In this document: positions 572 through 29,129 of the stretch, in pieces
How the letters are laid out: each line of letters starts with the position of its first letter
Position numbering within the stretch: the first letter of the stretch is position 1
NCBI GenBank assembly: GCA_041304645.1
Contig: JBFYMY010000140.1
Span: 1 to 29,701 of the forward strand
From: Thermoplasmatales archaeon
GTDB taxonomy: Archaea; Thermoplasmatota; Penumbrarchaeia; Penumbrarchaeales; Penumbrarchaeaceae
Length of the DNA: 29,701 nt
Direction of reading: 5' to 3'
Position numbers and translations under genes: made by a program
Notes under the pieces: model-generated
What the model was told of the DNA's origin: nothing
Databases searched by the model: none
Seen by the model: the letters and a program-made list of their open reading frames with translations, nothing else

Positions 572-3500
572 AGAGGCTATGATTGTAGTGTTCACCATCC
601 AGATCATCATACTTTCAATATTCCCAATAACATGGTCAATAGAAGCAGAATGTAAAGATGGTTCTTTCGGGGGGGGAAACGGAACTCTTGACAATCCTTA
701 TGTTATCGAAGATGTTTGGGACCTGCAAGCAATGAATGACGACCTTTCTGCGCATTATATTTTGAAGAACGATATCAACGCTTCAGTGACAAAGACATGG
801 AACTATGGTGGGGGGTTTAGCCCGATAGGACACTATTCAGCAGAATTCAATGGCAGTCTTGATGGTCGGGGATACAATATTACAGGACTTGTGATCAACT
901 GGCCTAATGTGTTGAATATCGGATTGATAGGATATTCTGGAACTGAGAGCAAGATAAAAAATCTGAATCTGGTCGAAATTACTTTAAATTCAGGGGATGA
1001 CATCGGTGGGCTTATCGGTTATAATAGGGGTAAGGTGATTGATTCTAATGTCTCAGGAAAAGTAACTGGAAAGCCCAGTTATCATGGAAATATCGGTGGG
1101 ATCGTTGGAACTAATGAAGGTTCAATATCCAGATCTAATTACTGCGGAAATGTGACATGGGTCGGAGAAATTGGCTTGACCAAAGGAAAGGTGGGTGGTA
1201 TTGTTGGGAATAATATAGGATTTGTGGACAATTGCACTTTCTATGGAAATGTCTTTGGGGGATGGATCGTTGGAGGAGCTATAGGAATTAACTATGGTTC
1301 AATCTTAAATATTAAGGTAGACGGGAACATTGAAGGCTATGAACAAGTTGGAGGGATAGTCGGTTCAAGTTCTGCTCTAGTATCTCGTTCCTGTTTCTCA
1401 GGAAATATCTCTGGTTGGTCCCATATCGGCGGTATAGGGGGATTCGTTTCTGGAGGCACGGTGACCAACTGCTATGCTTGGGCAAACACCACCGGTTGGA
1501 AATTTGTTGGTGGTCTGTTAGGGAGTAATTCTGGGTCGGTCATAAATTCTCAAGCCGATGGGAGGGTAAATGGACCACAGAGCGTGGGTGGACTCATTGG
1601 ACAAAATAATGAAGGTTCTTTATCCAATTGTAATGCATCGGTCATAACTATCGGAGAAGAAATCGTTGGTGGACTCGCAGGAGAGAATAATGGAGGCACG
1701 ATAGTCAATTGTCGATCCAATGGAATTACGATCGGAACTAGTTCTGAAGAGAGCTATGTCGGTGGTCTTGTTGGATATAACAATGGGTCAATCTTTAATT
1801 CCAGAGCCGATGGAACAGTGGAAGGGATAGATAGTGTTGGTGGCTTTGTTGGTATCAATAAGGAAGGCTCCATCTCCAATTGCACATCATATGTCGTCAC
1901 TATCGGTGAGGACTTCGTCGGCGGTCTAGCAGGGGAGAATCTTCGTGGCACTGTGGTCAATTGTCAATCCCATGGAGATACTATCGGGACAGGTTTTCAA
2001 TTCGGTGTAATTGGAGGTCTTGTGGGACGCAACACCGGTCCGATCTACGATTCGATTGCCACGGGAAAGGTGACTGGAGTTGTGAACTGGACCTGGTCTG
2101 TTGGAGGTCTTGTGGGCGCCAATAGCGAGTTAGGCACAATAACATCCTCATTTGCAGCAGGGGATGTCCTAGGAAGTGGAGGGGTCGGAGGCCTAGTGGG
2201 ATCGAACAACGGCATGGTTTCCAACTCATCTTCATTTGGAAATGTCAACGGGACGAGTATGGTGGGGGGGCTCGTCGGTAATAACAATGAAGGACAGGGT
2301 GGTTCAATTAATAGTTCATTTTCCCTGGGAAATGTGAGTGGTCATGCCTGGGTAGGCGGCCTTGTGGGGCATAAAGGCTATGGATTTTCGATATCAAACT
2401 CCCATTATAACGTTGAAAAGGTTCTGATAAATGGGGCACATCATGTCACTTTCGGTGGACTGTTCGACCCTCAATACAGGGATTGGATCGAGAACGAGAT
2501 GAACTTGGAAATAACTGACTATGGGTCCACTCTTAGATTGGCTGATGATCATTATGAAATTAGTGGTGTTCAGGGATTTATGGACCTTCTCGGTTTCGCG
2601 GATATTTACGAGTACAAATATCGTTTGGTCATGGATCTGGACTTCTCGCAATACTCGAATATATACATCCCGTACTTAGCTTCACAAGAGTTCGATGGCA
2701 ATGGAAAAACGATATTCAACCTTTGTATAGACCAATCTTTCTCCTCGGGAGTAGGTCTATTTGGCACCATTATCCATGGGTCGATCAATAACCTGTATCT
2801 TGAAAACGTACAAAATTCAGGATACTGGTGGGTCGGTGGGCTTATTGGACAGAACTATTATGGTAATATCATAGCCTCATCCATAGGATCAGGGAATGTG
2901 AGTGGCATCAACGATGTGGGTGGCCTGATAGGAAATAATTATTTTGGTTCGTTATCCTCCTCGTTTTCAAAAGCATGTGTCAACGGAATTGAGAACATAG
3001 GTGGGCTTGTCGGCTTTAATTGGGGTTCCATCTCAAAATCCTATTCTACCGGAAGGACCGAAGGGGACAGTAAAACCGGGGGTCTTATCGGGACAAATTT
3101 TGGTGGTTCAGTCTTTGACTCTTATTCGACGGGTTTAATCATCGGAACCGGTCAAAAGGGCGGACTAATCGGTAACAGCACTAAAGTAACAGTTTCGAAC
3201 TGCTTCTGGGATGTTCAAACCAGCGGATTAATGACCAGCGGAGGAGGGGTCGGAAAGACCACGAAGGAAATGAAGACCAAGAGCATTTATACAGATGCAG
3301 GATGGGACTTCGGGACCGTATGGACCATAATTGAAAACGGGACATACCCATTCCTGAGATGGCAGGACCGTCTGCCTCCAGTCGCGGACCCGGGTCTCAA
3401 CATTACCGTGGATGAAGGTACAATAGTAACCTTGAATGGAGAAAAAAGCTTAGATGATATGGGGATAATTAATTACACTTGGACATTCACAGATGGTGAC

Positions 3501-15218: not shown

Positions 15219-16379
15219 TCACGTCACTATTTCGGCCAATCTATCCTCTTGAACGGCTCTGCGGACCTCCATGGCGAGCCTCCTTCCTGTGGAAACGGTC
15301 CGCCTCCAGATGGAATTCCCATAGGGATGGCCCACCCACATGTGGACGTTGGTCCCCCCGCCGATCCTTGGAGCGACATCGTAGATGAAGAAGTCCATGT
15401 CCTTGTCAACGCAGGTCTGGAGGCAGAAAGGCCCTATGATACCGGGCGGATAGTGCTCCTTTGAGGCCTTGACATAGCTCTCGGCCATCTCGAAGACCTT
15501 CTCGAGCAGCGACTCCCTCAAGGTCGCCGAGTTGTGGCCGCAGACCGTGTACTCGGGTATCATTTGTTGTTGGTTCAAGGTCATCTGCTGGGGGGCGGGC
15601 AGCCTAACATGCCCGTCGAGGGAGGTCTCGAACCTCCAGTCCACGCCCAGGAGCTCCACCGGCGACATCTCCTCTTCCAGCGGCGAGTAGAACAGGTCGA
15701 AATTGAACACGGGGCCTATCACATAACGCTCTATCCTCGCATCCTTTAAGGTCATTTCGTCTATGACACCCTGCTCCACGAGCTTCCTGGACTTGGTCAT
15801 GTACTCCTCGTAGGAAGAGGCCGTGAAGAAGCCCCTCTCCAGCTTCTTCTTCTTGTGGTGGAGCTTCACGATGACGAGCCGGTCTATGTCCCTGGGGTCC
15901 TCGACCCGCTCGGGGAAGGGGAGACCAGCCTTTTCGAGCAGCCAGTAATAGCTCTGCCGCTCCTCTCTCTCTTCCGAGCGGAGCATCCCTCTGCTGCCTA
16001 CCATGGGAACACGGAAATCGTTCTCAATGGATGCGATGTCAACGTACGAGGTGAATGACCTGTTCGGGACCCACAGAAGGGACCTCTGGCGCATCCAATC
16101 CTGCCACCGGGGCTCCATCACATCCTTGTACCTGTCAAGGACGATGGCATCGTCCACCATGCCCCTTTGCAGCTTCCCGTCCAGCCCCCTCCTGGCCTTG
16201 AAGTAATGGGAATAGGTCCTTTCCCGCCCCTTCTGGCAGAAAGCCGTGGTCCTGAACCCCTCTTCCACGGCACCGTCGCAGGCATCGAGCGCAGAATGGG
16301 ATGCTATCATCCCTATGGTGACATCGTCCCTGTCGTATCCCCTGACCATCCTCTGGACCTCTGCGCGATCGAGCATCAT
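15219..16379 (-). CDS. purP: PurP-family formate--AICAR ligase (FAICAR synthetase or close paralog; ATP-grasp)
   Basis: IGMIASHSALD...GAVEEGFRT, VPNRSFTSYV, GSRGMLRSEER, LERGFF, IGPVFNFDLFYSP, YTVCGH..ATLRESLL, IIGPFCLQ, DVAPRIGGGTN and GRRLAMEV. A GGTGA RBS is adjacent to ATG-ATG (16379/16376). Confidence 0.9.
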   Translation of the reverse strand: MMLDRAEVQRMVRGYDRDDVTIGMIASHSALDACDGAVEEGFRTTAFCQKGRERTYSHYFKARRGLDGKLQRGMVDDAIVLDRYKDVMEPRWQDWMRQRSLLWVPNRSFTSYVDIASIENDFRVPMVGSRGMLRSEEREERQSYYWLLEKAGLPFPERVEDPRDIDRLVIVKLHHKKKKLERGFFTASSYEEYMTKSRKLVEQGVIDEMTLKDARIERYVIGPVFNFDLFYSPLEEEMSPVELLGVDWRFETSLDGHVRLPAPQQMTLNQQQMIPEYTVCGHNSATLRESLLEKVFEMAESYVKASKEHYPPGIIGPFCLQTCVDKDMDFFIYDVAPRIGGGTNVHMWVGHPYGNSIWRRTVSTGRRLAMEVRRAVQEDRLAEIVT

Positions 16380-16407
16380 CTCACCGGACCGGCCAAGGGA
16401 GCGGCCC

Positions 16408-16417
16408 GATATATATC
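16408..16417 (-). promoter_or_regulatory. Putative TATA element for purP
   Basis: GATATATATC lies 29-38 nt upstream of the purP start and resembles the element upstream of xpd. Confidence 0.45.
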
Positions 16418-16505
16418 TTCGGAGGTGGCACCTACCCCGTCCGGACGCAGGAAGGGTGTGTGTACAGGAATGTATTAATACGGTTGCTGGCAGATTAAGC
16501 ACATA

Positions 16506-16512
16506 TTATAAA
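16506..16512 (+). promoter_or_regulatory. Putative TATA box for the giant-protein operon
   Basis: TTATAAA sits in the 200-bp divergent gap; a GGAGG RBS at 16569-16573 precedes ATG 16579. Confidence 0.55.
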
Positions 16513-16578
16513 CGTTCCCTCGCTGTTAACGGGTGTTGCAGGGCTTGCCCTTTGAGCGGGGGAAGCACGGAGGCGACG

Positions 16579-19500
16579 ATGCGGTTTGCTACCCTATACC
16601 GGTCCTTTGCGGTGGTCGTTGCCCTGGCGATAGCCGTCTCGGCCATTATGGACCCTATAAGGCCCTCCAACATGTTCAGCAGGGAGCAGGGCGACAATCC
16701 GTCCGGGGCGGTCCCCGGGATCGATACCGACGGTGACGGCCTCAAGGACATCTGGGAGGACCTCAACAGGAACGGGGTGCTCGAGATGGAGGAGAGGTCC
16801 CTCTCCGACCCCTACGACCCCGACAGCGACGGTGACGGTATAGAGGACGGATCGGAGTTCGACCTGCTGGCGGCCAGGGCAGGCAATTTGAGCTCCGCTC
16901 CAAACTGGCTCAGGATGTTCTCCCCATCCTTGGAGTCCATGGCGCTTGAGATAGGGGTCCTGGGCCCCAATGGGGATGTCGATAGGGACGGTTCGGTGAA
17001 CATACTGGACTCGGACAGCGACGGTGACGGGATCATGGACGGGGTGGAGCTCTCCGCCGGGACGGACCCTCTGGACCCTGACAGCGACGGTGATATGGTA
17101 CCCGACGGCAGGGATACGGCCAATGGGTTCGTGAAAGATGCCGATGGCAACGGCCTTGATGACGATCGGGAGGAATATTTCGGCCTGGAAGGCCCCGACG
17201 GCGACCCCGACGGGGATACCATGACGAACCTTGTCGAGTTCCAGAGGGGTACTGACCCGACCCATCAGGACCTTTTCGGTGGTCATGTAGGTTCTTTCAG
17301 GCCCACGGACCTGCTTGATATACGCTCGCCGTCCACCCCTATCCTCAGGGTCGAAGGTACAGGGGCAAGGTACCTCAGGGTCGCATCTTTCGACAGGTAC
17401 GTCAACGGGGAATGGCTCCGCACACCTGACCTGCCTCTCACGGCCATAGCCCCTGACGGGTCGGTCAAGGAGGCACGCATCACCCTCCAGGGTAGGTGGC
17501 GCTTCGATATGCCCGTCCATCCCTGGACCATCGAGGCCAAAGCGCTAGCCCCCTACTCTCTCTTTCCGGGTGCCGGTTCGGCCGAGATGGTGATGGAGGA
17601 ACAGATCTCATATTCATGGGTCCCTCTGCAATCTTACACCGTATCATATCTGGAGCCGTCATATGACCCGACGCTCCTTAGCGAGAGCGGTTCGAACGAT
17701 GTCGTTCCATCGAGCTACAGAGAGGTACCCTCAGGCCTCTCTGACGACGTTAAAGAGCTTGCCGAGACCTGGGCGGCAGGACCCTCATCAACATACGATA
17801 AGGCCATGGACCTGACGTTCCGTCTATGGTCCAGATGCATCTATTCCTCAGCCGGAACGACCGGTGACGCTGAGAGCCGCACGGTAAGGGACTTCCTTTT
17901 CATGACCCTAAGGGGCAACGCTCTCGACTTCTCGACCGCCTTCGCCATCATGTTGAGGGTGCAGGGGGTCCCGACGAGATTGGTGGCAGGCTATTCCCTT
18001 GGCATCGATGATGGGGGCTACCGGACCTACCTTGAGGGTCACTTCCACATCTGGGTCGAGGTCTACATCGACGGCATCGGGTGGGTGCCTTTCGAGGTCA
18101 CCCCCCATGCCATCTCAGCAAGGGGTGGGGCCGGGGTCCCGGTGGACGGGGTCGATCCCTACGTGCTCGGTCCCAACTCGGGGGACGGCGGGGGAACGCT
18201 CAGAGGGGGCGGTGACCCAGCGAGCGATCCGGACCAGGACTACGACGGGGACCTGGTCATCAACGGCCGCGAAAGGGAGTTCGGCACCAATCCCTATCTC
18301 CCGGACACGGACGGCGACGGGCTCGATGACGGACTGGAACTCGACCTCTACGGGACAGACCCCCTCTCAAAGGACACGGATTGGGACTGGTTAGGGGACG
18401 GGGAGGAGGTCACGAAGGGCAGGGACGGTTACATAACGGACCCTTTGGTCCCGGACACGGACGGAGGCGGTCTGTGGGACGGTCTGGAATCCCTCTCCAC
18501 CCCGCAGCTTGACCCTCTGGACCCCGAGGATGACAGGCGTGTCACGGACATAGACGGGGACGGGCTCGATCAGGCCCAGGAGGCGTTCTATGGTACCGAT
18601 CCTTTAAGGAACGATACGGACATGGACGGTCTGCAGGACGGGGAAGAGCTCTTCACGTACGGGTCATCCCCCCTCTCAAAGGACACGGACGGGGACGGTC
18701 TCAGCGACAAGGATGAGACCTATCCATCGTCGGGTAAACCCTTTACGAACCCCTCGGCGGCGGATACCGAATTTGATGGTCTCGATGACAGGTTCGAACT
18801 TGACAAGGGTACAGCCCCCGGCAGGTCGGATACGGACCAGGACGGCCTCAAGGACATGTTCGAGCTCGAGCTGGGGACAGACCTGAAAGGTTGGGATACC
18901 GACGGTGACGGTCTGTCCGACGGCAGGGAGGTGAAACTGGGCACAGACCCGTTGAAGGCCGATACCGATGGTGACGGAACGAATGACGGCCCCGAGGTCT
19001 GGAACGGTCTGAACCCCTTGTCGGTCGAAGGTCGGTCCGAAGGCCTTCTCGACGTTGACGGTGACGGCCTGACGGACCGGCTCGAGCTTGAGATAGGGAC
19101 CGACCCTTTCAAGAACGATACCGACGCCGATGGACTAACCGACGCCCTGGAGCATTTCGAGACAGGAACAGACCCGCATTTGAACGACACGGATGGCGAC
19201 GGTCTGTCCGACGGGGCGGAGGTCTCTCTGGGCACATCCCCCAGGCTCAACGATACTGACGGCGACGGGCTCGACGACAGGGTCGAGCTCGTTCTTGGTA
19301 CAGACCCCCTCTCAAGGGATACGGACCGGGATATGTTGTCAGACGGAGCGGAGGTCCTGTCAGGTACGAACCCCTTGACCATGGACACTGACGGGGGGGG
19401 ACTGGGCGATGGTATCGAGGTAGCTGTTCCAAGGGACCCGTTGAAGGGTTCGGATGACCTGCCTTTTCCGCCGGACACGGACGGTGACGGTCTGCCAGAT

Positions 19501-22500
19501 GTACTGGAGGCGCTTTTCGGGACCGACCCATTGGTCCGGGACACCGACGGCGACGGTCTTTCGGACGGGGAGGAGGCCATGCTTCTCAAGACCAACGGGA
19601 CCCTCTCCGATACCGATGGTGATGAGCTGTCGGACGGTGATGAGGTCCGCCGATACCTTACCGACCCCCTCGCGTGGGACACTGACGGCGACGGCCTGAC
19701 CGACGGCAGCGAGGTCATAGACTGGGGCACCGACCCTCTGTGTTCCGATACGGACGCCGATTCTCTCCCTGATAGGAACGAGACCGTCATAGGGACCGAT
19801 CCGCAGAGGTACGACACCGATGGTGACGGTCTTTCGGACGGGGGGGAGGTCATGCTTGGGACCGATCCCCTGAAGGACGACACGGACGGAGGGGGGGCCA
19901 TTGACGGCATAGAGGTCCGTTCCGGTGCCGACCCGCTCGACCCAAGGGACGACCCACCCTACAGGGACCAGGACAACGACGGATTGCTGGACCGTGAGGA
20001 GGATAAGGACCTTGACGGGAAACTGGATGATGATGAGACCGACCCGCTCGACCCCGACACCGATGGCGACGGTCTGAGCGACATGGTCGAGGTCAAAGGC
20101 CTCCTGGGGCACATCACCGATCCCAGGTCCCGGGACACTGACGGTGACGGGATAGAGGACCTGGAGGAGATGGTCCTGGGGTCTGACGGATACATCACTG
20201 ACCCTGCAAAGAGGGATACGGACGGTGACGGTCTGAACGACGGCGACGAGGTCTCCGGGCTCTACGGTCTTCCCAGCAGTCCAGAGTCCATCGACGGTGA
20301 CGGGGACAACCTGAGCGATGTCATGGAGCTGAACGTCTCCAGGACTGACCCTTTGGACCCTGACACCGACGATGACGGTCTCCCTGACGGCTGGATGGAC
20401 GGCTGGGTCGACGGGAAGGTCAACGGGGTCAAGGACCTGGGCGAGTACGAGGACCGTAACCTTGACGGCCTGGTGGAGCCGGGGGATTGGAACGGGGGGG
20501 CCGGTCCCGGTGAGTCGGACCCATTGGAACCTGATACCGATGGAGGGGGTGTGACCGACGGCAAGGAAGTCCTGCACAGGCCTCTTCCTTTCGATCCGCT
20601 GAGCCCCCACGATGACGGTTTCATACTCGACAGCGACGGAGACGGGCTCCCTGACATCGATGAGATGCTGCTTGGGACCAAATGGAACGACCCAGATACC
20701 GACAAGGACGGTCTGGTGGACGGCCCCCTGACCGTGACCATCGATGGGAAGGAGATGAAGGGCGAAAGGTCCGGACATAACGGTTTCGACCCCACGGACC
20801 CTCTTGACCCCGATTCCGACGGCGACGGCGTCAAGGACGGCCTGGAGGTATCCGACCGGACCGATCCCAACGACCCCGATACGGACGGGGACGGCCTCTG
20901 GGACGGTTATGACATCGTTGACAGACAGGGCAGGCCTCGTGAGGGGGAGCGGACCCCCAGGAACAGGCTGGACCCGTCAAGGCCTTATGCCCCGACGGAC
21001 CCGTTGAAGGCAGATACGGACGGGGACGGCCTGCTGGACGGGGGGAACCTCGAGCTGCCTTCAGGGGTTATACTTCCAGGCGAGGCCAAGCATGGGACGG
21101 ACCCGCATTCGCCCGATACGGACGGCGACGGTCTCACGGACGGGGCCGAGGTCACCATTTACTTTACTGACCCGCTGTCGCCGGACACGGACAGGGGCGG
21201 GATGCCGGACGGTCTAGAGGTCGAGAGGTCCATGGACCCTCTGGACCCGTCGGACGACGACAGATGGCTCGACAATGACGGTGACGGACTTCTGAACTTC
21301 GAAGAGAGAGAGACGTTCTACTATCCGCTCACGACCGTGGACTGGAACGGTGACGGTCTCATGGACAACAGGCCCGACCCGAACGATGCGGACACGGACG
21401 GCGACGGCATCTCCGATGGGCAGGAGGTGCTGGTGGAGGGGACCAATCCCCTCACTGCCGATACGGACAGGGATGGCCTGACGGACCTTGAGGAGCTGGT
21501 ATCATATCGCACCGACCCCAACAGGCCCGATACCGACGGTGACAGCCTGCCGGACCTGGCGGAGGTCACCCATGTCTGGGAAGATAGCTATGTTGATTGG
21601 ACCGGTGACGGGAGGTTCGACAATACCACCGACCCGAACGATAGGGACACGGACAGGGACCAGCTCACGGACGGGCGGGAGGTGACCGAGGGTACGAACC
21701 CTCTCGACCCCGGAGACCCGGGTTCGGAACCCCTCCCCGAAGAGCGACCGATAGTCCTGATCGAGACCGCCCCGCAGACCCTGGTCAAGACCACCGAAAG
21801 GAAGGACGGGGCCTTCAAGGTCGAGGGGAGGGTGACCGGCAGGGACGGAAGGCCCGTTAAGGGTGCTTTCGTTTCGGTCCTCATAGTCCCTGAAGGGATG
21901 CCCGCCGAGACCATCCTCACGCTCGAGGCGAACCCCGCATACAGGGTCGGCAGTTCGACCGGTACGGACGAGGGGGGCCGGTTCTCGGCAAGCTGCGCTC
22001 CTGTCAAGGGTACTCCCGTAGGCCCGGTGGTCCTTTACGCGGTCACCAGGGAAACGGTGCATTCCTTCAAGTTATTCACGCCCTCGGCCTCTGACCCCAT
22101 ATCCCTGACGGTCAGGTCATCTTCAGCTCTCCTGCTGGGACCTTTCCCTTCCACGTCCGTCATAGGCAGCAGGGTCCCGTTGAACGGTAGTATCGTGGAT
22201 GCAATGGGAGAGCCCCTAAGGGGCCTTGACCTTGATATATCGGTGGACGGGAAGGCCGCAGGTGCGGTACGTTCCGACGGCAAGGGCGTTTTCCTCGTTT
22301 CCCTGGAGCTCCCGAAGGAGGAGGGTGAGCATTCAGTTGAGGTCGGTTACAGGGGGGGACAGTACATAGATAGGTCGCAGGTCTCCATCACCTTCGAACT
22401 GGTCCCCGGCCCCGAGGTGAGATTGTCACCTATACCCTCCGTCCTTAGCATGGGGTCGGTCCTCTACGTCAACGGGACGGTGTCCTGGAACGGTCCCACC

Positions 22501-24177
22501 CCAGAGGGCGAGGTCATAATCATGGTCGTCAGGACCGGGGCCTCTGGGCCCGCGGCGGACATCACCGCCCCCTTGAGCGGAGGCGCGTTCACATCGAGCT
22601 TGAGGCTCGTTCCCGAGACCTTCCCTCCGGGCGCTTATATGATCTCGGTCTCCTTCACCATCGCGCCAGGGCAGACCGCGGTCAACTCCTCATTAACCTT
22701 CAGATCGCTGGACAGGACCACCCTCATGGTCCCCGACCTGGAGGTGGTCAGGGGGACCGTCCATTCACTGGATGTCCTCCTCCTCTCCTCGACGGGAGCG
22801 CCCGTGGAAGGAGGGACCGTGCGGGTCACGTTCCCCGATGCTACATGGCTCCCGTCCGGCGCTGCTGTCACCAATTCCACGGGATGGGCGGCCATAATGG
22901 TACAGGTCATCCCAGGTTCGCCCTTGGGCCCTGCAAGTATGATGGTGGAGCATGTGGCGGAAGGGTCCCAGGGGACCGTTGGCGGGACGGGGTCGTTCAC
23001 CGTTTGGGTGGTGGCGCTCTCTAAGCTGACACTTACGGACCCGCCCATGGAGCTTACGCTCCTGGACGGCATGAAGGTTGAGGGCAGGCTCGAGGATGAC
23101 AACGGGGCCGGCATAGTGGGGGAAGGGGTGATAGAGCTCCTGATGGACGGGGTCCAGGTCGAGGTAACGGACTCAAGGGAGGGCGGGTTCTTCACCATGT
23201 CCCATACGATGGACCGGTTCACAAGGACCGGCAGCGGGACCATGACCGTCAGGTTCCGCGACCTGAATGATGAGAGGGCAGGATGGTATCGACCGTCCGA
23301 GTCCTCATGGAAGGCCATTGTCCGGTCCAGGACATATCTGACGGTCGAAGGTGAGCCCCTACCGGGCAGCTTCAACATGACGGTTCGGCTTGCGGATGAG
23401 AAGGGGGCACCCGTAGGGAGCGCACCGATCCAGTTCGGCAAGGGTCTCTCCTACTCCACCAGGTTCACGGATGCTCAGGGAAATCTCACATTGTTGTTCA
23501 ACGGGACGTCCGAGGGGGATGTCCTCTTCCTGAGGTTCCCCGGCGACCCTTCGAGGTTCCTCATTGGCACCGGATACAATACGACGGTACCGGTGTCCAA
23601 AGGGACCGGTCCGCGGATGGACCTTGCCCCCTTCCTCCTTGCAGGCCTCGTTGCAGCAGTGATAGCGGCGGCTGCGGCCATGTACATCCGGGCAAGGAAG
23701 CTCAGAAGGGACTCGGAGCATGATCGTCTCGAGCGGATGGAAAGGCGAACCTTGTACCCGTTCGATCCCGCCGGGAGGACCAACAAAGCCATCTTCGAAT
23801 CATACCGCAGTGTCCAGGACCGGCTGAGGGCCGGCGGGTCAGGCAGGCCTGAGGAGATGACGGCAAGGGAATATTCCACCATAATGACATCGGAGGCCCC
23901 GGAGCTCAGGGAGCTCGACAACCTAACGAAGCTCTTCGAGGAGGCCCGTTACTCCGACCATGAGATGTCGTCCCATCTGATGGGGGTCTCCAAGGATATC
24001 GAACAGAGGCTCCTGCGGTCCGCCGAGGCTGTGGACCATGTGCGGTTGGGAAGCAGGGTATCGGTCATGGGGGCCGAGACCTCCCGGTCTGTCCCCAGAC
24101 CTCAGATGCACAGGTTGAGGATGGATCACGGGAGCGATCTTTTGGACCTCCTCGGCGAGAAGGGGGTGTCCGGTTGA
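16579..24177 (+). CDS. Giant (2532 aa) membrane-anchored protein: TSP3-like Ca-binding repeats, transglutaminase-like domain, Ig-like domains, TM helix, DUF4129
   Basis: Signal-like N-terminus MRFATLYRSFAVVVALAIAVSAIM, then YLRVASFDRYVNGEW (TgpA/DUF3488-like) and GNALDFSTAF..MLRVQGVPTRLVAGY...HIWVEVY..GIGWVPFEVTP (TGase fold). About 50 DxDGDGLxDxxE..GTDP repeats, beta-rich Ig-like segments, a TM helix at ~23623-23690, and SYRSV...EMTAREY...LTKLFEEARYS (DUF4129). The track ORF start at 16246 overlaps purP. Confidence 0.88.
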   Translation: MRFATLYRSFAVVVALAIAVSAIMDPIRPSNMFSREQGDNPSGAVPGIDTDGDGLKDIWEDLNRNGVLEMEERSLSDPYDPDSDGDGIEDGSEFDLLAARAGNLSSAPNWLRMFSPSLESMALEIGVLGPNGDVDRDGSVNILDSDSDGDGIMDGVELSAGTDPLDPDSDGDMVPDGRDTANGFVKDADGNGLDDDREEYFGLEGPDGDPDGDTMTNLVEFQRGTDPTHQDLFGGHVGSFRPTDLLDIRSPSTPILRVEGTGARYLRVASFDRYVNGEWLRTPDLPLTAIAPDGSVKEARITLQGRWRFDMPVHPWTIEAKALAPYSLFPGAGSAEMVMEEQISYSWVPLQSYTVSYLEPSYDPTLLSESGSNDVVPSSYREVPSGLSDDVKELAETWAAGPSSTYDKAMDLTFRLWSRCIYSSAGTTGDAESRTVRDFLFMTLRGNALDFSTAFAIMLRVQGVPTRLVAGYSLGIDDGGYRTYLEGHFHIWVEVYIDGIGWVPFEVTPHAISARGGAGVPVDGVDPYVLGPNSGDGGGTLRGGGDPASDPDQDYDGDLVINGREREFGTNPYLPDTDGDGLDDGLELDLYGTDPLSKDTDWDWLGDGEEVTKGRDGYITDPLVPDTDGGGLWDGLESLSTPQLDPLDPEDDRRVTDIDGDGLDQAQEAFYGTDPLRNDTDMDGLQDGEELFTYGSSPLSKDTDGDGLSDKDETYPSSGKPFTNPSAADTEFDGLDDRFELDKGTAPGRSDTDQDGLKDMFELELGTDLKGWDTDGDGLSDGREVKLGTDPLKADTDGDGTNDGPEVWNGLNPLSVEGRSEGLLDVDGDGLTDRLELEIGTDPFKNDTDADGLTDALEHFETGTDPHLNDTDGDGLSDGAEVSLGTSPRLNDTDGDGLDDRVELVLGTDPLSRDTDRDMLSDGAEVLSGTNPLTMDTDGGGLGDGIEVAVPRDPLKGSDDLPFPPDTDGDGLPDVLEALFGTDPLVRDTDGDGLSDGEEAMLLKTNGTLSDTDGDELSDGDEVRRYLTDPLAWDTDGDGLTDGSEVIDWGTDPLCSDTDADSLPDRNETVIGTDPQRYDTDGDGLSDGGEVMLGTDPLKDDTDGGGAIDGIEVRSGADPLDPRDDPPYRDQDNDGLLDREEDKDLDGKLDDDETDPLDPDTDGDGLSDMVEVKGLLGHITDPRSRDTDGDGIEDLEEMVLGSDGYITDPAKRDTDGDGLNDGDEVSGLYGLPSSPESIDGDGDNLSDVMELNVSRTDPLDPDTDDDGLPDGWMDGWVDGKVNGVKDLGEYEDRNLDGLVEPGDWNGGAGPGESDPLEPDTDGGGVTDGKEVLHRPLPFDPLSPHDDGFILDSDGDGLPDIDEMLLGTKWNDPDTDKDGLVDGPLTVTIDGKEMKGERSGHNGFDPTDPLDPDSDGDGVKDGLEVSDRTDPNDPDTDGDGLWDGYDIVDRQGRPREGERTPRNRLDPSRPYAPTDPLKADTDGDGLLDGGNLELPSGVILPGEAKHGTDPHSPDTDGDGLTDGAEVTIYFTDPLSPDTDRGGMPDGLEVERSMDPLDPSDDDRWLDNDGDGLLNFEERETFYYPLTTVDWNGDGLMDNRPDPNDADTDGDGISDGQEVLVEGTNPLTADTDRDGLTDLEELVSYRTDPNRPDTDGDSLPDLAEVTHVWEDSYVDWTGDGRFDNTTDPNDRDTDRDQLTDGREVTEGTNPLDPGDPGSEPLPEERPIVLIETAPQTLVKTTERKDGAFKVEGRVTGRDGRPVKGAFVSVLIVPEGMPAETILTLEANPAYRVGSSTGTDEGGRFSASCAPVKGTPVGPVVLYAVTRETVHSFKLFTPSASDPISLTVRSSSALLLGPFPSTSVIGSRVPLNGSIVDAMGEPLRGLDLDISVDGKAAGAVRSDGKGVFLVSLELPKEEGEHSVEVGYRGGQYIDRSQVSITFELVPGPEVRLSPIPSVLSMGSVLYVNGTVSWNGPTPEGEVIIMVVRTGASGPAADITAPLSGGAFTSSLRLVPETFPPGAYMISVSFTIAPGQTAVNSSLTFRSLDRTTLMVPDLEVVRGTVHSLDVLLLSSTGAPVEGGTVRVTFPDATWLPSGAAVTNSTGWAAIMVQVIPGSPLGPASMMVEHVAEGSQGTVGGTGSFTVWVVALSKLTLTDPPMELTLLDGMKVEGRLEDDNGAGIVGEGVIELLMDGVQVEVTDSREGGFFTMSHTMDRFTRTGSGTMTVRFRDLNDERAGWYRPSESSWKAIVRSRTYLTVEGEPLPGSFNMTVRLADEKGAPVGSAPIQFGKGLSYSTRFTDAQGNLTLLFNGTSEGDVLFLRFPGDPSRFLIGTGYNTTVPVSKGTGPRMDLAPFLLAGLVAAVIAAAAAMYIRARKLRRDSEHDRLERMERRTLYPFDPAGRTNKAIFESYRSVQDRLRAGGSGRPEEMTAREYSTIMTSEAPELRELDNLTKLFEEARYSDHEMSSHLMGVSKDIEQRLLRSAEAVDHVRLGSRVSVMGAETSRSVPRPQMHRLRMDHGSDLLDLLGEKGVSG
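16723..17271 (+). repeat. N-terminal cluster of about 7 DxDxDG repeats
   Basis: DTDGDGLKD, DSDGDGIED, DVDRDG, DSDGDGIMD, DSDGDMVPD, DADGNGLDD and DPDGDTMTN. Confidence 0.85.
18238..21720 (+). repeat. Main array of about 43 TSP3-like DxDGDGLxDxxE...T(D/N)P repeats (1161 aa)
   Basis: Counted by eye in the translation. Most units are 19-22 aa and are diverged at DNA level. Confidence 0.92.
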
Positions 24178-25400
24178 GGGTCAGTTGGGCCAGGGCGCTA
24201 TCGCTTTCGGTCATGGTGGCGGTAGCTCTTTTCATCCTCACCGCTCTGGCGGCGCCTCTTATCATAGTGGAGACAAGGTCCACCCTGTCGACCTCCGAGG
24301 AAGGTTGGATGGGAGCCTCGGAGTTCCTGAGCATCGCCAAGACCACCGGGGCGAGCGTCATGGTCCTGACCACCACGCCGACGCTGCTCCTTGAGGACGA
24401 GGACCCCGACAAGGTGCTCTTCATCTCCCTTGGCCCTCAGAGGCGGTATACGCTCACCGAGACCCTTGCCCTCAAGAAGTTCACGGAGAGAGGTGGAAGG
24501 CTCCTTGTGGCGGACGATGAGGGCATGACCTCCGGGGTCGCGGAGGACCACGGGGTAAGCTACGCAAAGGGGCAGCTCTACGACCAGGACTTCGTCGGAG
24601 ATGTCAACCACCTCAAGTTCGATGTCTCGACGAGCTTCTTCGACGGTTTCGTCCTCATGAACCGACCCGCCTCGCTGTTCTTCACCTCGGGCGTCGCCCT
24701 CATTGCATCCTCGAGCTCGGCATGGGTCGATCAGAACGGGAACGGCCTGAACGACAATCTGAGCTCCGGTTCGCCCGAGGCCCAGGGCGTGAGGTACCTC
24801 TGTGTCCTCACGGACCCCGACCTGGCGCAGACGGGCGGGGGTGGGGCGGTGTTCCTCTCGGACCCCTCCATGTTCATGAACGGGATGCTGGGTTCGGAAG
24901 GGAACGGACAGTTCGCCAAGGCCCTCATAGAGTTCCTGCTCCCCGATGGCGGTATGATGGTCATAGACGATTCTGTCCACGACCCGCCGCTCCCCTCATC
25001 CCCCGTAAGGAAAGCGGTCTATGGGGTGGCCATGTTCACGACGGACATCAACATGAAGATAGTCGTCGGGACCCTTGTGACCGTGGCCCTTCTCTCCATA
25101 GCGTACCTCTACAACCCCCTGGAAAGGCCCGAGCACGTCTGCCTCCTGGACAGGAGCGGGGTTGCCGAACTTGCGGAGCCGGAGCTCGCACCCGAGGACT
25201 TAAATGAGGCCAGGAAGGTTTTCCTGGACAGGGTCAGGCTCTTCCACGGCCTCTCGGTCGAGGCATTCTCCAGAGCGAGCTGGGAAGAGCTCGATAGGCT
25301 GATAGGCGACAAGGTGCTCTCGGCGTTCGCCCGGAGCGGGCGTTACGATGGGACCATGGAGGGCATCGTGGAGGAGGTGGGACGATGGCAGAGGAAGTGA
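24174..25400 (+). CDS. DUF4350 domain membrane protein
   Basis: N-terminal TM, STSEEGWMGASEF, FTERGGRLLVADD, VFLSDPSMFMNGML..GNGQFAKALI and a second TM helix. The TTG start overlaps the upstream TGA (TTGA). Confidence 0.78.
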   Translation: MRVSWARALSLSVMVAVALFILTALAAPLIIVETRSTLSTSEEGWMGASEFLSIAKTTGASVMVLTTTPTLLLEDEDPDKVLFISLGPQRRYTLTETLALKKFTERGGRLLVADDEGMTSGVAEDHGVSYAKGQLYDQDFVGDVNHLKFDVSTSFFDGFVLMNRPASLFFTSGVALIASSSSAWVDQNGNGLNDNLSSGSPEAQGVRYLCVLTDPDLAQTGGGGAVFLSDPSMFMNGMLGSEGNGQFAKALIEFLLPDGGMMVIDDSVHDPPLPSSPVRKAVYGVAMFTTDINMKIVVGTLVTVALLSIAYLYNPLERPEHVCLLDRSGVAELAEPELAPEDLNEARKVFLDRVRLFHGLSVEAFSRASWEELDRLIGDKVLSAFARSGRYDGTMEGIVEEVGRWQRK

Positions 25401-26638
25401 GGAACTACACTCTGAGGGCCATGGCCTACGCCGCCTCCAGCCTGACGCTTCTGGTGCTCTCCCTGGTCCTATCATCCGAGCTTCTCCTTGTCGGTTCCCT
25501 TGTCATAGGGGCCATCATGCTGCTCTCCTTGACCACCCTCCCGGGGAGGCCCAGGGTCACGGCGGAGATGGACCGGACCCAGGTGTTCGAGGAAGAGACC
25601 GTCCGGGTGGACATGGAGATAGATTCCCGGGGGAGCTGGGGCAACATAGAGGTCTTCCACAGGCTCTCTCCCAACCTCGAGCTCGACAAGGGTTCGAACC
25701 TGGCCTTGCTGCCGCCGGGCAGGAGCCGCCATTCGTTCGTCGTCAAGGCCCCCCTGCGTGGCTACCATCCGACCGGTCCTACCCTTGTCCGAAGGTGGGA
25801 CCCGCTATGGCTATGGTATCGGGAGTCCGCCTCCGGCGAGCCCCAGAACCTGACCGTGTTCCCCGCCATGCACCAAGGCAGGCAGGGGGCCGTGAAGGTG
25901 AGGCAAAACCTCCACAGGCCAGGTGAGATGAAGGTCAAGAGGATCGGGTCAGGAAAGGAGTTCCATTCCATCCGTGGTTACACGACCACGGACCCGTTCA
26001 ACACCATCAATTGGAAGGCGTTCGCAAGGACGGGTAAGCTGCAGGTCAACCAGTACGAGACCGAGACGGTCACCGATGTCATGTTCTTCATAGATGCCCG
26101 CCTTGTCGGCAGGGTCGGGCTAATGACGGACAACCCCGTCGAACGGTCCATCAGATTGTGCGCTTCGCTATCTTCCGCCCTCCTGAACAGGTCGAACAGG
26201 GTCGGTCTTGTGGTCTACGGCCGTTCTGTCAATGTAACAAAGCCTAAAGGCGGCCCAGGGGCGCTCCAGTCCATCCTTCATATACTCACGGACATCACCC
26301 CGTCGGGACAGGACACTCTGGGCTCCAGCGTCACATACGCCCTGTCGTATCTGTCCCCCAACTGCCCCATCCTCATACTCTCTTCCCTTGCTGAGGACCC
26401 CACCGTCAAGGAGGCGGTGAGACAGCTGGTCGGAAGGGGGCACCCGACCCTGGTGGTCTCCCCGTCAGGGGTGGATTTCGAAAGGATGCTCTATTCCGAT
26501 GTGACGGTCCCCAAGTACCTGCTTAAGAAGCTGTCCAGGGAGAACCTCCTAATGGAGCTCGGCTCCATGGGGGCCAGGGTCGTGGACTGGCACCCGGGCA
26601 AGGACGTACAGTGGGCCCTTATGGAGGTATGGGAATGA
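25385..26638 (+). CDS. DUF58 domain protein (vWA-like) with two N-terminal TM helices
   Basis: RGYHPTGP...DPLWL, LTVFP, GSGKEFHSIRGY...DPFNTINWKAFARTGKLQVNQYE, MFFIDAR and NRVGLVVYG match DUF58. It overlaps the upstream gene by 16 bp. Confidence 0.88.
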   Translation: MAEEVRNYTLRAMAYAASSLTLLVLSLVLSSELLLVGSLVIGAIMLLSLTTLPGRPRVTAEMDRTQVFEEETVRVDMEIDSRGSWGNIEVFHRLSPNLELDKGSNLALLPPGRSRHSFVVKAPLRGYHPTGPTLVRRWDPLWLWYRESASGEPQNLTVFPAMHQGRQGAVKVRQNLHRPGEMKVKRIGSGKEFHSIRGYTTTDPFNTINWKAFARTGKLQVNQYETETVTDVMFFIDARLVGRVGLMTDNPVERSIRLCASLSSALLNRSNRVGLVVYGRSVNVTKPKGGPGALQSILHILTDITPSGQDTLGSSVTYALSYLSPNCPILILSSLAEDPTVKEAVRQLVGRGHPTLVVSPSGVDFERMLYSDVTVPKYLLKKLSRENLLMELGSMGARVVDWHPGKDVQWALMEVWE

Positions 26639-27456
26639 GTGCGGTCCTTCAGAAGGCCCTTTTGGTCTGGCCCGTGCTCTGCCTCATCGGGGCCGCGTTC
26701 ATCCTTCCGATCGCGGTACCGGAGATAGGTACTTTCCAGGTCTTCGTATCCGGCTCGCTCGAGGGTGTCCCCGTGTTCCTCTGGTCGGTCATAGGGCTCG
26801 TCCTTGGGGCGGCCGTATCGTTCCTGAGGTCAAGGTGGCCCAGGCAGACCATCCGTTACGGGGCCAGGGCATTCTTGGGCCTGGGCGCCTGGCTCGTGTT
26901 CGGGCTTGTATTATCGCTGTTCATGGGGGAGGGGTCCTATTATGAGAGATTGAAAGGGTCGGTGGTGATAAGGTCGTGGGCCATCATCGTCTGGACCCTT
27001 GTGTGCATGGCCCCGACCATGCTGGGTGTCCACAGCGTCCTTTACCGCTCAACGATGGCTCGGGGGGGAACGGTCCTCTCGTTCCTGCTCTTGGCGCTAT
27101 CGGGCATGGTCTATGCCCAGGCCTCGGAGGTCAGGGTCGCTCATCAGGACCCGTTCCTTTCCATCATCTTCATCTGGGCCGTCCTGGGGTTCCTTGAGGG
27201 GATCAATTGGAGGAACAGGTACGCATCCCTGGATTACGAGGCGCACATGAGCGACATCCTACTTGCCAGGCAGGTGGGTTTCACCCTTGTGTTCATGGGG
27301 ATCGGCGCTGTGGTGGCGGTCGCACCGTTCCTCATAGGCGATTGGCCCAGCACCTACTATGAATCCACAACGATCCTGGGGAAGGCCCTGGTCGGGCTCA
27401 TGGCCATCTCCCCGCTTGCAGTTCTTTCACTGGTCAGGAACCTTTTCGGAAGATAG
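26635..27456 (+). CDS. Polytopic membrane protein of unknown function (about 7-8 TM helices)
   Basis: ATGA overlap with the DUF58 stop, a GGAGG at 26623-26627, and alternating long hydrophobic segments. Confidence 0.78.
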   Translation: MSAVLQKALLVWPVLCLIGAAFILPIAVPEIGTFQVFVSGSLEGVPVFLWSVIGLVLGAAVSFLRSRWPRQTIRYGARAFLGLGAWLVFGLVLSLFMGEGSYYERLKGSVVIRSWAIIVWTLVCMAPTMLGVHSVLYRSTMARGGTVLSFLLLALSGMVYAQASEVRVAHQDPFLSIIFIWAVLGFLEGINWRNRYASLDYEAHMSDILLARQVGFTLVFMGIGAVVAVAPFLIGDWPSTYYESTTILGKALVGLMAISPLAVLSLVRNLFGR

Positions 27457-27492: not shown

Positions 27493-27537
27493 ATAATGAA
27501 CCGATTAGATGCCTGCTTTGTCCGATACGGTGTTCCC

Positions 27538-28686
27538 ATGAGCGATAGGGAGGTCCTTAGAGCAGATGTCCTGGAGGGGCTTGACGGGGAGGAGACCACC
27601 GAAAGGCCCTCAAGGAGGATAACGGCCGGCCCCATCATAGCTATCATCGTGGTCCTTGTCCTCCTTACAGCCGCCGGGTTCTACTTCTTCTGGGGGACGA
27701 GCGTGACCTCGGTGAGGTTCCTCAATGCGCCTGAGGAGGTCTCCGATGATGATGGCAGGTACGGGATAGCCCTGAGCATGCTGGCGCTGAGCCGCGGTGC
27801 GCAGACGGTCGATGGGAAGGGAGCGCTCGACATCTCTTTCGATTCGGCTAGGGTCCATACCCAGCAGGTCACGGTAAAGGAGGACCGGGCGGACATCATA
27901 GTGAAGTTCTCCGATTTCGTTACCGAGAACGGAGAGTACGAGTTCACGTTCTCCATTGAAGGCAAGAAGACTACCACTGCTCACAGCATAGGCCATGTTC
28001 CTGTGAGCCTCAATCTCTCCATTACCGAAAGCCTGGACCAGGAAACGAAGCAGACCAGGAACTTTGTACTTGTGACGCCCAAGTTCGGGGCCTCATGGGC
28101 CATTGACCTGTCCCCTTACAGCAAGAGGTACAATGTCGAGATAAGCATGCTAGACCCGACCGGAAGCGACGATCCCAGGACGATGAGCCTTTACGAGCTC
28201 CTTCTGGACCCGTACTCCCCCCAGCTTGAGATAGAAGGGGACTACATGGGCTACTACACCATATCCGCCCAGATGGAGAATGCCCTTGTCAGGTCCACTT
28301 CCAGGTACAGGCAGATAACTTCGGAACCATCCACCTTGGACGTTTTCGTCAACAAGGCTCCGGTCATTGACGACTTCAACTCTCCCGAAAGGGCCAAGAA
28401 AGGGGTGGAGGTGGAGTTCAGGATATCGGCCTCGGACCCCGACCTGAACGGGGGCATAGATTATCTCCTCATAGATTGGGACGTCAATAACAACGAGGAC
28501 TTTTTCCAGGAGTTCCAGGATTATTCAGGGGGGGTATTGAGGGTCAAGCACACCTTCCAGCAGTCGAAGGTGTTCATCGTCTATTTCACGGTGGGGGATA
28601 ATGGGGATATCGAACCGGGCAACGGGGAGCCTCCACAGAAGAGGTTCGCCTACCAACAGGTCGAGGTCACTGTCTCATTGATATAG
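27538..28686 (+). CDS. Single-pass (type II-like) membrane protein with beta-rich extracellular region and PKD-like C-terminus
   Basis: Charged N-terminal tail, TM helix IIAIIVVLVLLTAAGFYFFW, then NKAPVIDDF...ISASDPD...YLLIDWD...KHTF...FTVGD (PKD-like). Confidence 0.78.
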   Translation: MSDREVLRADVLEGLDGEETTERPSRRITAGPIIAIIVVLVLLTAAGFYFFWGTSVTSVRFLNAPEEVSDDDGRYGIALSMLALSRGAQTVDGKGALDISFDSARVHTQQVTVKEDRADIIVKFSDFVTENGEYEFTFSIEGKKTTTAHSIGHVPVSLNLSITESLDQETKQTRNFVLVTPKFGASWAIDLSPYSKRYNVEISMLDPTGSDDPRTMSLYELLLDPYSPQLEIEGDYMGYYTISAQMENALVRSTSRYRQITSEPSTLDVFVNKAPVIDDFNSPERAKKGVEVEFRISASDPDLNGGIDYLLIDWDVNNNEDFFQEFQDYSGGVLRVKHTFQQSKVFIVYFTVGDNGDIEPGNGEPPQKRFAYQQVEVTVSLI

Positions 28687-28767: not shown

Positions 28768-28841
28768 GGGCCGATGGTCTAGCTGGTTATGACGTCACCT
28801 TGACATGGTGAAGGTCCCCGGTTCAAATCCGGGTCGGCCCA
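28768..28841 (+). tRNA. tRNA-Val(GAC), no intron, CCA not encoded
   Basis: Acceptor stem GGGCCGA/TCGGCCC plus discriminator A, D arm GGTCTAGCTGGTTATGAC, anticodon stem TCACC/GGTGA with loop TTGACAT (GAC at 28802-28804), T arm CCCGG-TTCAAAT-CCGGG. Confidence 0.97.
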
Positions 28842-29116
28842 TTTAACTTTTCTTAATATTCTTTGCATGGGCCGCCCCTCGAAAAAGATTATAGTTCAAA
28901 CGCTAGGAAAATCGTGAACAGTGAGTGATTAGAACTGCGATTTTCCTGCGCCCTTGAAGCCTTCGGCTTCTGCGGGTCCGGGTCGGCCTATTCGATATTA
29001 ATTGATTATGCAGTAGAGAGTGGGACGACCCGAAGGGATCATAGTTAAATCGTTGAGAGTGAAAAAGGAGTTAGATATCGGACTGATATTACCTTTTTTA
29101 CGAATCCGGGTCGGCC
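28826..29116 (+). repeat. Three direct copies of the tRNA-Val 3' end (att-like)
   Basis: AATCCGGGTCGGCC at 28826-28839 (in the tRNA) and 29103-29116 is an exact 14-bp match; TCCGGGTCGGCC at 28977-28988 is a 12-bp match. Confidence 0.85.
28842..28864 (+). terminator. T-rich archaeal-type terminator after the tRNA
   Basis: TTTAACTTTTCTTAATATTCTTT immediately follows the discriminator base. Confidence 0.5.
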
Positions 29117-29129
29117 TGCATATCATCGC

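Follow-up and report, generated by a model that had tools for sequence, protein, structure and literature searches.

The archaeal gene neighbourhood of DUF4350 (arCOG01314), MoxR, proteins with an immunoglobulin-like (Ig) and a von Willebrand factor A (vWA) domain, and surface proteins was modelled by Makarova, Galperin and Koonin in 2015 as a putative secretion or membrane-remodelling complex (PMC5898192). GldG and type IX secretion served as the analogy for the secretion proposal, the vWA protein was predicted to be secreted rather than cytoplasmic, and the ATPase was carried by only 'the majority' of such operons (PMC5898192). A related bacterial operon, PA2875-PA2874-PA2873 of Pseudomonas aeruginosa, encodes MoxR, DUF58, and TgpA; TgpA is a true transglutaminase (TGase) with measurable activity and its gene is essential, whereas the co-transcribed MoxR gene PA2875 is non-essential and can be disrupted (PMC3507681). 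Here, we describe an operon of five plus-strand genes on contig JBFYMY010000140.1 of a Thermoplasmatales archaeon, in which a giant TgpA-like protein is followed by DUF4350, DUF58, a polytopic membrane protein, and a PKD-like anchor protein, and in which MoxR is missing. The window analysed is the entire 29,701-bp contig, part of an incomplete metagenome-assembled genome (MAG). Our favoured reading, with a probability of roughly 0.55, is that the products of the operon form an envelope complex spanning the membrane, a MoxR-less derivative of the DUF4129/DUF4350/MoxR/DUF58 module with a giant expanded DUF4129 subunit and a TGase predicted to be dead, and that MoxR is likely dispensable for its core function. 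The genes and domains are as follows, with lengths in amino acids (aa) and transmembrane helices abbreviated as TM.

16579 to 24177, + strand: giant TgpA-like surface protein, 2532 aa (Pfam, hydropathy, motif count; orthologues of 2236-2653 aa)
17755 to 18096, + strand: TGase-like core with a degenerate catalytic site, aa 393-506 (Pfam Transglut_core, 61.8 bits, cutoff 23)
18256 to 21783, + strand: main array of predicted Ca-binding TSP3 repeats, aa ~560-1735 (Pfam TSP3_bac, 15 stretches; 21.6% Asp)
21811 to 23538, + strand: stalk of Ig-like/CarboxypepD_reg/Big_1-like beta-sandwiches, aa ~1745-2320 (Pfam, sub-threshold to threshold)
23632 to 23970, + strand: C-terminal TM (aa 2352-2370), basic flank, and DUF4129 (aa 2409-2464), the last predicted to be cytoplasmic (hydropathy, Lys/Arg counts, Pfam)
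24174 to 25400, + strand: DUF4350/arCOG01314 protein, 408 aa (Pfam, 70 bits; AlphaFold2; Foldseek)
25385 to 26638, + strand: DUF58 protein, 417 aa (Pfam, 48.6 bits; AlphaFold2; Foldseek; alignment)
26635 to 27456, + strand: polytopic membrane protein, 273 aa, ~7-8 TM, from a clade-restricted family (hydropathy)
27496 to 28686, + strand: fifth gene of the module, PKD-like anchor protein, 396 aa (Pfam PKD_4, E = 0.0045; sequence; conserved position)

The operon is clearly a derivative of the arCOG01314 module joined to a TgpA-like protein, not a new kind of system. The preliminary description of this DNA had ranked it as the strongest candidate for an undescribed system, a claim that does not stand because the neighbourhood was described in 2015 (PMC5898192). 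Its DUF4350 protein resembles that of the arCOG01314 complex in being anchored in the membrane, with a C-terminal TM and a GldG-like flavodoxin/GIFT domain that is predicted to be extracellular. In both cases, an Ig and vWA protein (DUF58; arCOG02742/02747 in the paper) is encoded next to DUF4350, and surface proteins with Ig-like domains as well as small polytopic proteins of the membrane accompany them, although the families in the window differ from those of Table 2 in the paper; both systems are archaeal, operonic, and experimentally uncharacterised. The window, however, lacks the MoxR/COG0714 (GvpN-type AAA+) ATPase, one of the three core components described, its surface component is a 2532-aa TgpA-like/TSP3/DUF4129 fusion instead of arCOG02884-type S-layer-like proteins, and its polytopic and 396-aa proteins come from clade-restricted families.

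With the P. aeruginosa operon (PMC3507681) and the MoxR-DUF58-(TGase/DUF4129, ~740 aa) clusters of Bacillales, the window shares DUF58 and a protein combining an extracytoplasmic TGase core, a TM, and a cytoplasmic DUF4129 tail. In contrast to TgpA, which has an intact Cys-His-Asp triad, the window protein shows Ala-His-Glu, and its core and TM are separated by ~1850 aa of TSP3 and Ig-like repeats; compared to the P. aeruginosa operon, the TGase protein comes first, DUF4350 is interposed, and MoxR is absent. The lack of both MoxR and the catalytic Cys thus sets the operon apart from plain members of the arCOG01314 or TgpA systems.

Other known clusters resemble the operon in part. The nearest non-archaeal relatives of the window DUF58 (27-36% identity) belong to actinobacterial and Chloroflexi clusters of the type DUF4129-(DUF4350 or ~200-aa protein)-MoxR-DUF58 (L032, L036, L037, and many of L114-L191; L-numbers are our labels for loci), in which the three retained components have the same order, but MoxR lies between the second gene and DUF58, and the DUF4129 protein has 275-350 aa and neither TGase nor TSP3. 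The PFNA cluster of Bifidobacterium (pkb2-fn3-aaa/MoxR-duf58-tgm; PMC8430577) also combines a large repeat-containing surface or adhesion protein with DUF58 and a TGase-like membrane protein; in contrast, it is bacterial and host-associated, includes MoxR and a Ser/Thr kinase, and encodes the surface protein and the TGase in separate genes. CglD/MtsD of Myxococcus (NF033765, NF047639) likewise carry long arrays of Ca-binding TSP3 repeats on a cell-surface protein, but the resemblance is through the repeats only, the vWA domain of the window residing on the separate DUF58 protein. Unlike the Bat (Bacteroides aerotolerance) operon, the window cluster is without VWA/BatA, TPR (BatC), or MoxR genes (Pfam), and unlike the MoxR (MRP)-vWA chaperone pair, its DUF58 has no adjoining MoxR gene. 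What is new is how widespread and how old the MoxR-less form is, that a TgpA-like protein is fused with ~1850 aa of TSP3 and Ig repeats, and that two clade-restricted accessory proteins, namely the polytopic and the 396-aa protein, are present.

Gene junctions and products of the operon

The first three junctions, as read from the sequence, are overlaps. The TTG start of the DUF4350 gene overlaps the TGA stop of the giant gene at 24174-24177, the DUF58 gene starts with an ATG at 25385 while the upstream stop is at 25398-25400, giving an overlap of 16 nt, and DUF58 and the polytopic protein are joined by an ATGA at 26635-26638. Overlaps of -4 at the first junction and of -4, -13, or -16 at the second recur among the orthologous loci of the clade and are not due to chance. 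Because of the 16-nt overlap, there is no space for MoxR between DUF4350 and DUF58, and no AAA_3/MoxR match was found in any window open reading frame (ORF) by Pfam or by a MoxR profile run against all six-frame ORFs. The four overlapping genes, the domain assignments, and the missing MoxR were all given in the preliminary description and are borne out by these results.

In the giant protein, an N-terminal signal/anchor is followed by TSP3 repeats, the TGase-like core, the long TSP3 array, the Ig-like array, the TM, and the DUF4129 tail; hydropathy and charge bias predict an ectodomain of ~2320 aa, a single TM, and a cytoplasmic tail of ~160 aa containing DUF4129. TSP3 repeats dominate (TSP3_bac, E = 4e-88, 15 stretches, besides CarboxypepD_reg/Big_1 in Pfam), and 29 strict DxDxDGxxDxxE motifs were counted in the ectodomain, so that the giant protein is predicted to bind Ca, as had been proposed from the sequence. 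The Ig-like stalk domains are present in the orthologues too, and neither a vWA domain (Pfam) nor a lipobox was found in the protein. Membership in CglD was considered and rejected: the NCBIfam score of 413 bits (cutoff 400) is driven by the repeats, the 14 matching stretches are not collinear, and the best of them covers model positions 154-316 of 1124.

The sole solved structure matched by aa 380-520 of the giant protein is that of P. aeruginosa TgpA (6g49; phmmer, E = 3.4e-8). The alignment places the G-F-C motif of TgpA on G-N-A of the giant protein and its catalytic Cys on Ala448 (codon GCT at 17920); the Cys-His-Asp positions are occupied by Ala448-His490-Glu506 according to this alignment and to the orthologues. 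Among 12 orthologues, the window protein included, the Cys position holds Ala in six, Ser in four, Asp in one (L033), and Cys in one (L031), whereas His490 is invariant and Glu is found at the third position in all of them. The catalytic Cys is thus lost in 11 of the 12, in agreement with the loss noted earlier, and given Ala at the nucleophile position, the domain is predicted to be catalytically dead. A correlated loss of MoxR and Cys, which the earlier reading of the DNA had put forward for a comparison of synteny across Thermoplasmatota, was not borne out: L031 lacks MoxR yet retains the Cys, indicating that loss of the MoxR gene and loss of the nucleophile are not coupled.

The DUF4129 domain scores 27.3 bits (cutoff 24.8), and six Lys/Arg residues follow the TM at 2352-2370. 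A profile of this tail retrieves the DUF4129 partners of bacterial MoxR-DUF58 operons, and in the bacterial relatives the subunit is a protein of 275-350 aa. Across the family, the TM and DUF4129 tail of this subunit are constant, whereas its ectodomain is variable (275 aa to 2650 aa); the TGase core is missing altogether from the DUF4129 subunits of the more distant relatives L053 (1240 aa) and L023 (684 aa). In L003/L008/L042 (contig CAWEDU010000011.1, 2363-10004), the giant gene appears as three ORFs, one of 2236 aa with TGase and TSP3, one of 111-116 aa, and one of 182-191 aa with TM and DUF4129, which could mean that the DUF4129 tail is truly separated from the ectodomain or that the long-read assembly contains frameshift errors.

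The DUF4350 protein is predicted from hydropathy to have an N-terminal anchor (TM 13-31), an extracellular domain, a second TM at 294-312, and a conserved helical cytoplasmic tail of ~95 aa. Its AlphaFold2 model, built with an alignment of orthologues (mean predicted local distance difference test score, pLDDT, 79), contains a GIFT-type (GldG/IFT52/OST48-like) domain and a helical bundle past the TM, and weak Pfam matches are to ABC_transp_aux and IFT52_GIFT. Foldseek relates the model to IFT52 (1.6e-7), to an OST-B chain (6s7t_G, 7.9e-7), which we take to be the OST48 subunit, and to GH42 beta-galactosidases. The trimerisation domain of GH42 beta-galactosidases had earlier been linked to the DUF4350 family by Makarova et al. 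(PMC5898192). The cytoplasmic tail is homologous to that of MoxR-linked DUF4350 proteins (E ~1e-10). Two other identities of this tail were rejected, namely a second DUF4129 domain (hhalign probability 0.5%) and an in-frame remnant of a deleted MoxR lid (0.3%), the latter also because MoxR-linked DUF4350 proteins have the same tail.

The DUF58 protein is the best-conserved subunit and retains every motif common to its MoxR-linked homologues in the alignment. It consists of an N-terminal TM hairpin, an Ig-like sandwich (~57-160), a linker motif (~166-228), and a vWA-like domain (~230-417), and hydropathy and the positive-inside rule predict an N-in/C-in topology with the body in the cytoplasm. 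In the AlphaFold2 model (orthologue alignment, pLDDT 80), the vWA domain resembles Rpn10, TFIIH p44, and CMG2 (Foldseek). The linker (window 25880-26068), G.G.EF..IR.Y...D....INWKA.AR...L.VN.YE.E, is the most conserved sequence of the family and the sole low-confidence region of the model, and it may fold only once a partner is bound. At the metal ion-dependent adhesion site (MIDAS), the window protein has IDARLV instead of DxSxS. The degenerate MIDAS is uninformative about ATPase independence, since MoxR-linked relatives of this DUF58 subfamily are also without DxSxS (ILDARQ, LVDHRE).

The polytopic protein has no known domain in Pfam or NCBIfam, and its family comprises 18 representatives among 1.84 billion proteins searched exhaustively. 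Assignment as a SpoIIM-, ABC-2-, or GldF-like permease was rejected, as there was no Pfam match with E<5 in 10 orthologues and no NCBIfam match. The fifth protein is a type-II membrane anchor (TM 47-65) with an ectodomain of ~330 aa weakly similar to PKD/Ig domains. Its gene (27496-28686) accompanies the other four in every complete orthologous locus, including the two with different flanking genes (L033/L034), and is part of the module; the 39-nt gap before it contains a TATA-like tttaaata, so that it may also have a promoter of its own.

Loci with and without MoxR

Relatives of the operon were collected by locus scans with DUF4350 and DUF58 profiles, using one genome per GTDB species, and by contig look-ups. 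About 19 species-level MAGs of Thermoplasmatota, including ex4484_6, form the clade of the window and have a common gene order of XPD, two small genes, PurP, the giant protein, DUF4350, DUF58, the polytopic protein, and a 390-aa protein, with identities of 41-85% for DUF4350 and 51-94% for DUF58. The same five genes are found beside a proteasome gene in L033/L034, whose DUF58 is 35% identical; in this different context, too, they travel as a unit. In a sister group, one uncharacterised protein of ~504-573 aa replaces the polytopic and PKD-like proteins; this '551-aa type' (L021, L022, L031/L050, L035, L051, L052, and L053) has DUF4350-DUF58 ahead of that protein, in some cases after a giant protein. 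The replacing protein has a basic N-terminus, no Pfam family, and marginal matches to the polytopic-protein profile (E 0.002-0.3). L053 lies on a closed 3.58-Mb chromosome (CP070629.1, bin983) with a MoxR-less giant-DUF4350-DUF58-556aa cluster. In Marine Group II, ~50 MAGs of Poseidoniales have CDC48, DUF4350 (~550 aa), DUF58, and a protein of ~380-420 aa.

MoxR is absent within 8-10 kb at 63 of the 69 distinct Thermoplasmatota DUF58 loci, and DUF4350 ends at most 150 nt from the DUF58 start in 88 of 95 MoxR-less locus records. At 45 of the Marine Group II loci (L054-L111, e.g., L085 3748-5979), a same-strand gene for a CDC48-type double AAA+ ATPase (~743 aa) is found directly upstream of DUF4350-DUF58, which could be inherited housekeeping synteny or a different AAA+ partner; no such gene is present in the window. 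Three archaeal cluster contigs (L017, L095, and L101) are binned in MAGs titled Salinibacter sp., Phycisphaerae bacterium, and Pseudobdellovibrionaceae bacterium, probably because these bins are contaminated and not because the cluster was transferred to bacteria.

On both sides, canonical relatives have retained MoxR immediately ahead of DUF58. Halobacteria such as Haloarcula have DUF4350, MoxR (Pfam AAA_3, 4e-60), and DUF58 in direct succession, and the canonical system is also present in Haloferax; in the nearest bacterial DUF58 relatives (Chloroflexi, Anaerolineales and similar), the order is DUF4129, a ~200-aa protein, MoxR, and DUF58. Consistent with the typical position of MoxR given in the preliminary description, DUF58 is directly downstream of MoxR in most (~60, as read from the table) of 80 MoxR-anchored loci, in which DUF4129 is found two genes upstream or within a downstream TgpA-like protein of ~740 aa. 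The loss of MoxR is therefore the derived state. Within Thermoplasmatota, MoxR lies immediately upstream of DUF58 in three MAGs, represented by L064 and L104 (both DUF4350-MoxR-DUF58) and by L105, which starts inside MoxR at the contig end. L105 (7047-8201; MAG PL23a_bin.42) also has purP ~5 kb from its canonical MoxR-DUF58, and purP is the direct neighbour of the MoxR-less operon in the window clade, a similarity that may go back to a common ancestral locus or be a coincidence. The MoxR proteins of canonical Thermoplasmatota clusters carry low-complexity N-terminal extensions of ~70-200 aa that are charged or Pro/Ala-rich (L104 6467-7915, L064 6401-7915, L113 2152-3759, and L115 5755-6942), and those of Haloarcula and Chloroflexi are without such an extension.

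In a neighbour-joining tree of DUF58, all Thermoplasmatota are separated from the bacterial sequences (bootstrap 90), the MoxR-linked and MoxR-less lineages are interleaved, and backbone support is weak (21-68). MoxR in cis is therefore taken to be ancestral, and the interleaving points to its loss more than once or following duplications. One Poseidoniaceae MAG, ME_XS_2211_1_bin_35, contains both the MoxR-less L085 (JBMYVD010000008) and a canonical DUF4350-MoxR-DUF58-304aa locus, L115 (JBMYVD010000006), which was found among the MoxR matches listed from a profile scan of genomes; the MoxR-linked and MoxR-less DUF58 proteins of Marine Group II are sister groups (bootstrap 68). With both cluster types in one MAG, the MoxR-less cluster of Marine Group II is thus a paralogue beside a complete one, and MoxR could act there in trans. 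For the window clade, no MoxR was found within 8-10 kb of any orthologous locus, some of which lie on contigs of 60-204 kb. No second DUF58 locus of window-clade MAGs appeared among the best 80 genome matches, among which the known Marine Group II paralogue was missed too. A protein search with the MoxR profile gave 7997 matches, the best 120 of which were almost all from Marine Group II.

Flanking regions of the window

The start of the giant gene at 16579 is preferred over an upstream GTG at 16246 on account of a TATA-like element, a Shine-Dalgarno sequence, the signal/anchor at the resulting N-terminus, and the lengths of the orthologues. The TATA-like tattataaa is located at 16505-16513 and GGAGG at 16568-16572, 7 nt before the ATG. 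Both belong to the following feature.

16505 to 16572, + strand: putative archaeal promoter and leader, as read from the sequence, in a divergent intergenic region common with purP

The longest ORF of purP (15219-16502, minus strand, 427 aa, GTG start) extends ~42 aa beyond the 385-aa orthologues; its true start is probably an internal Met near 16376, which would widen the divergent promoter region common with the giant gene. A scan for sigma-70 promoters and intrinsic terminators gave nothing useful within the operon, its models not being applicable to archaea.

According to Pfam, the other genes of the window encode a GLUG/PKD/CARDB surface protein, a HerA-like ATPase, fibrillarin, DUF1015, an aminotransferase, a KaiC/TPR protein, an XPD helicase, and PurP. 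The gene of the GLUG/PKD/CARDB protein (1546 aa; 564-5204, and 125-571) has a GC content of 43-47%, compared to ~57-63% for most of the remaining contig, suggesting that this other large surface protein was recently acquired horizontally. At the opposite end, downstream of tRNA-Val(GAC) (28768-28841), the 3' end of this tRNA gene (TCCGGGTCGGCC) recurs in direct orientation at 28977-28992 and 29105-29120. These two further copies look like attachment sites left by integration and excision events; the related locus L004 has a phage-type integrase gene at the equivalent position.

A proposed envelope complex and its alternatives

In the favoured reading, the giant protein would be held in the membrane by its C-terminal helix, and an inner platform would be formed by three cytoplasmic parts, namely its DUF4129 tail, the conserved DUF4350 tail, and the Ig-vWA body of DUF58. 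Outside the cell, contacts with the giant ectodomain or its glycans would be made by DUF4350, through its GIFT domain, and by the PKD-like protein; the polytopic protein would scaffold the assembly. Such a complex may anchor and organise a surface fibre or adhesin, stiffened by Ca2+, on a wall-less archaeon. MoxR would have been an assembly helper of the ancestral system and not part of its working core, and a MoxR from a paralogous cluster would be a helper at most. Most likely, the MoxR step is dispensable for the core function, and a helper role fits the P. aeruginosa data, in which PA2875 is disruptable and tgpA essential (PMC3507681).

Several points weigh against this reading. The subunit contacts and the role as an anchor are drawn from topology and co-occurrence, and the topology in turn comes from hydropathy and the positive-inside rule alone; in the prediction of Makarova et al., the vWA protein is secreted instead (PMC5898192). 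The search for MoxR covered the 29.7-kb contig of an incomplete MAG and the loci of the clade, and a related Poseidoniaceae MAG has MoxR on another contig. In addition, the intact motifs of DUF58 fit continued service by an ATPase equally well.

These last points lead to the strongest competing explanation, action of MoxR in trans, which the preliminary description had already raised: a split cluster in which the complex depends on a MoxR encoded elsewhere, e.g., in a paralogous DUF4350-MoxR-DUF58 cluster, that remodels the vWA domain of DUF58 in trans. The coexistence of L085 and L115 in ME_XS_2211_1_bin_35, the extreme abundance of MoxR in Marine Group II, the sister relationship of the two kinds of DUF58 (bootstrap 68), which fits a duplication followed by loss of a redundant ATPase gene, and the full set of motifs in the window DUF58 all speak for it. 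The lack of MoxR within 8-10 kb at the window-clade loci, even on contigs of 60-204 kb, argues in the other direction, as do the dispensable MoxR gene of P. aeruginosa (PMC3507681) and, weakly, given that the Marine Group II paralogue was missed as well, the lack of a second window-clade DUF58 locus among the best 80 genome matches. Moreover, MoxR-vWA pairs are normally side by side (~60 of 80 MoxR-anchored loci), so that long-term unlinking would be unusual for a dedicated pair. On balance, we regard a split cluster as somewhat less likely than not, and as a serious rival.

An alternative in which the operon encodes a machine dedicated to the secretion or export of the giant protein, along the lines of the GldG and type IX analogy of Makarova et al. 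(PMC5898192), is unlikely. The GldG-type GIFT fold of the DUF4350 ectodomain, indicated by Foldseek and the weak ABC_transp_aux and IFT52_GIFT matches, and a very large surface protein as the first gene of the operon are what such a machine would predict. However, the operon is without an ATPase, a channel-forming family, or an ABC permease, its polytopic protein has no detectable relatives outside the clade, and the N-terminal signal/anchor and C-terminal TM of the giant protein are compatible with Sec-dependent insertion; a motor without an energy source in cis is also hard to picture. Equally doubtful is an envelope-modifying enzyme system in which the TgpA-like domain still acts as an enzyme with another nucleophile or as a glycan- or peptide-binding module: the invariant His490, the Glu that keeps the third triad position acidic, the four orthologues with Ser in place of Cys, the Cys retained by L031, and the true TGase activity of TgpA (PMC3507681) would suit it, but Ala, which provides no nucleophile, in the window and five other orthologues, Asp in L033, and the complete absence of the domain from the homologous subunits of L053 and L023 make it a poor fit.

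Returning to the MoxR-less envelope complex, a bolder version can be put forward tentatively, as it is rather less probable than not: a radiation of Thermoplasmatota, comprising the window clade, the '551-aa type', and the second cluster of Marine Group II, may have converted the MoxR-vWA-DUF4129 chaperone module into an ATPase-independent structural envelope complex, in which the former TgpA enzyme would have become a giant Ca2+-dependent surface fibre tied to the cytoplasm via DUF4129-DUF58 contacts. If true, this would be the first indication of the role that the DUF4129/DUF58/DUF4350 core plays without its ATPase, and the giant protein would rank among the candidates for a major envelope component in wall-less archaea.

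Few uncharacterised membrane gene neighbourhoods of bacteria and archaea are as widespread as that of DUF58, DUF4129, DUF4350, and MoxR, which includes an essential gene of P. aeruginosa. The MoxR-less variant, kept over deep divergence in dozens of species, including the abundant marine Group II archaea, separates a conserved core (the DUF4129-tailed protein, DUF4350, and DUF58) from variable MoxR, TGase chemistry, and ectodomain size. It thereby makes it testable whether the vWA protein needs MoxR as an obligatory partner or uses it as an optional helper in assembly. For the organisms themselves, the 2532-aa protein with its predicted Ca-binding repeats is likely a major surface structure of uncultured, wall-less archaea.

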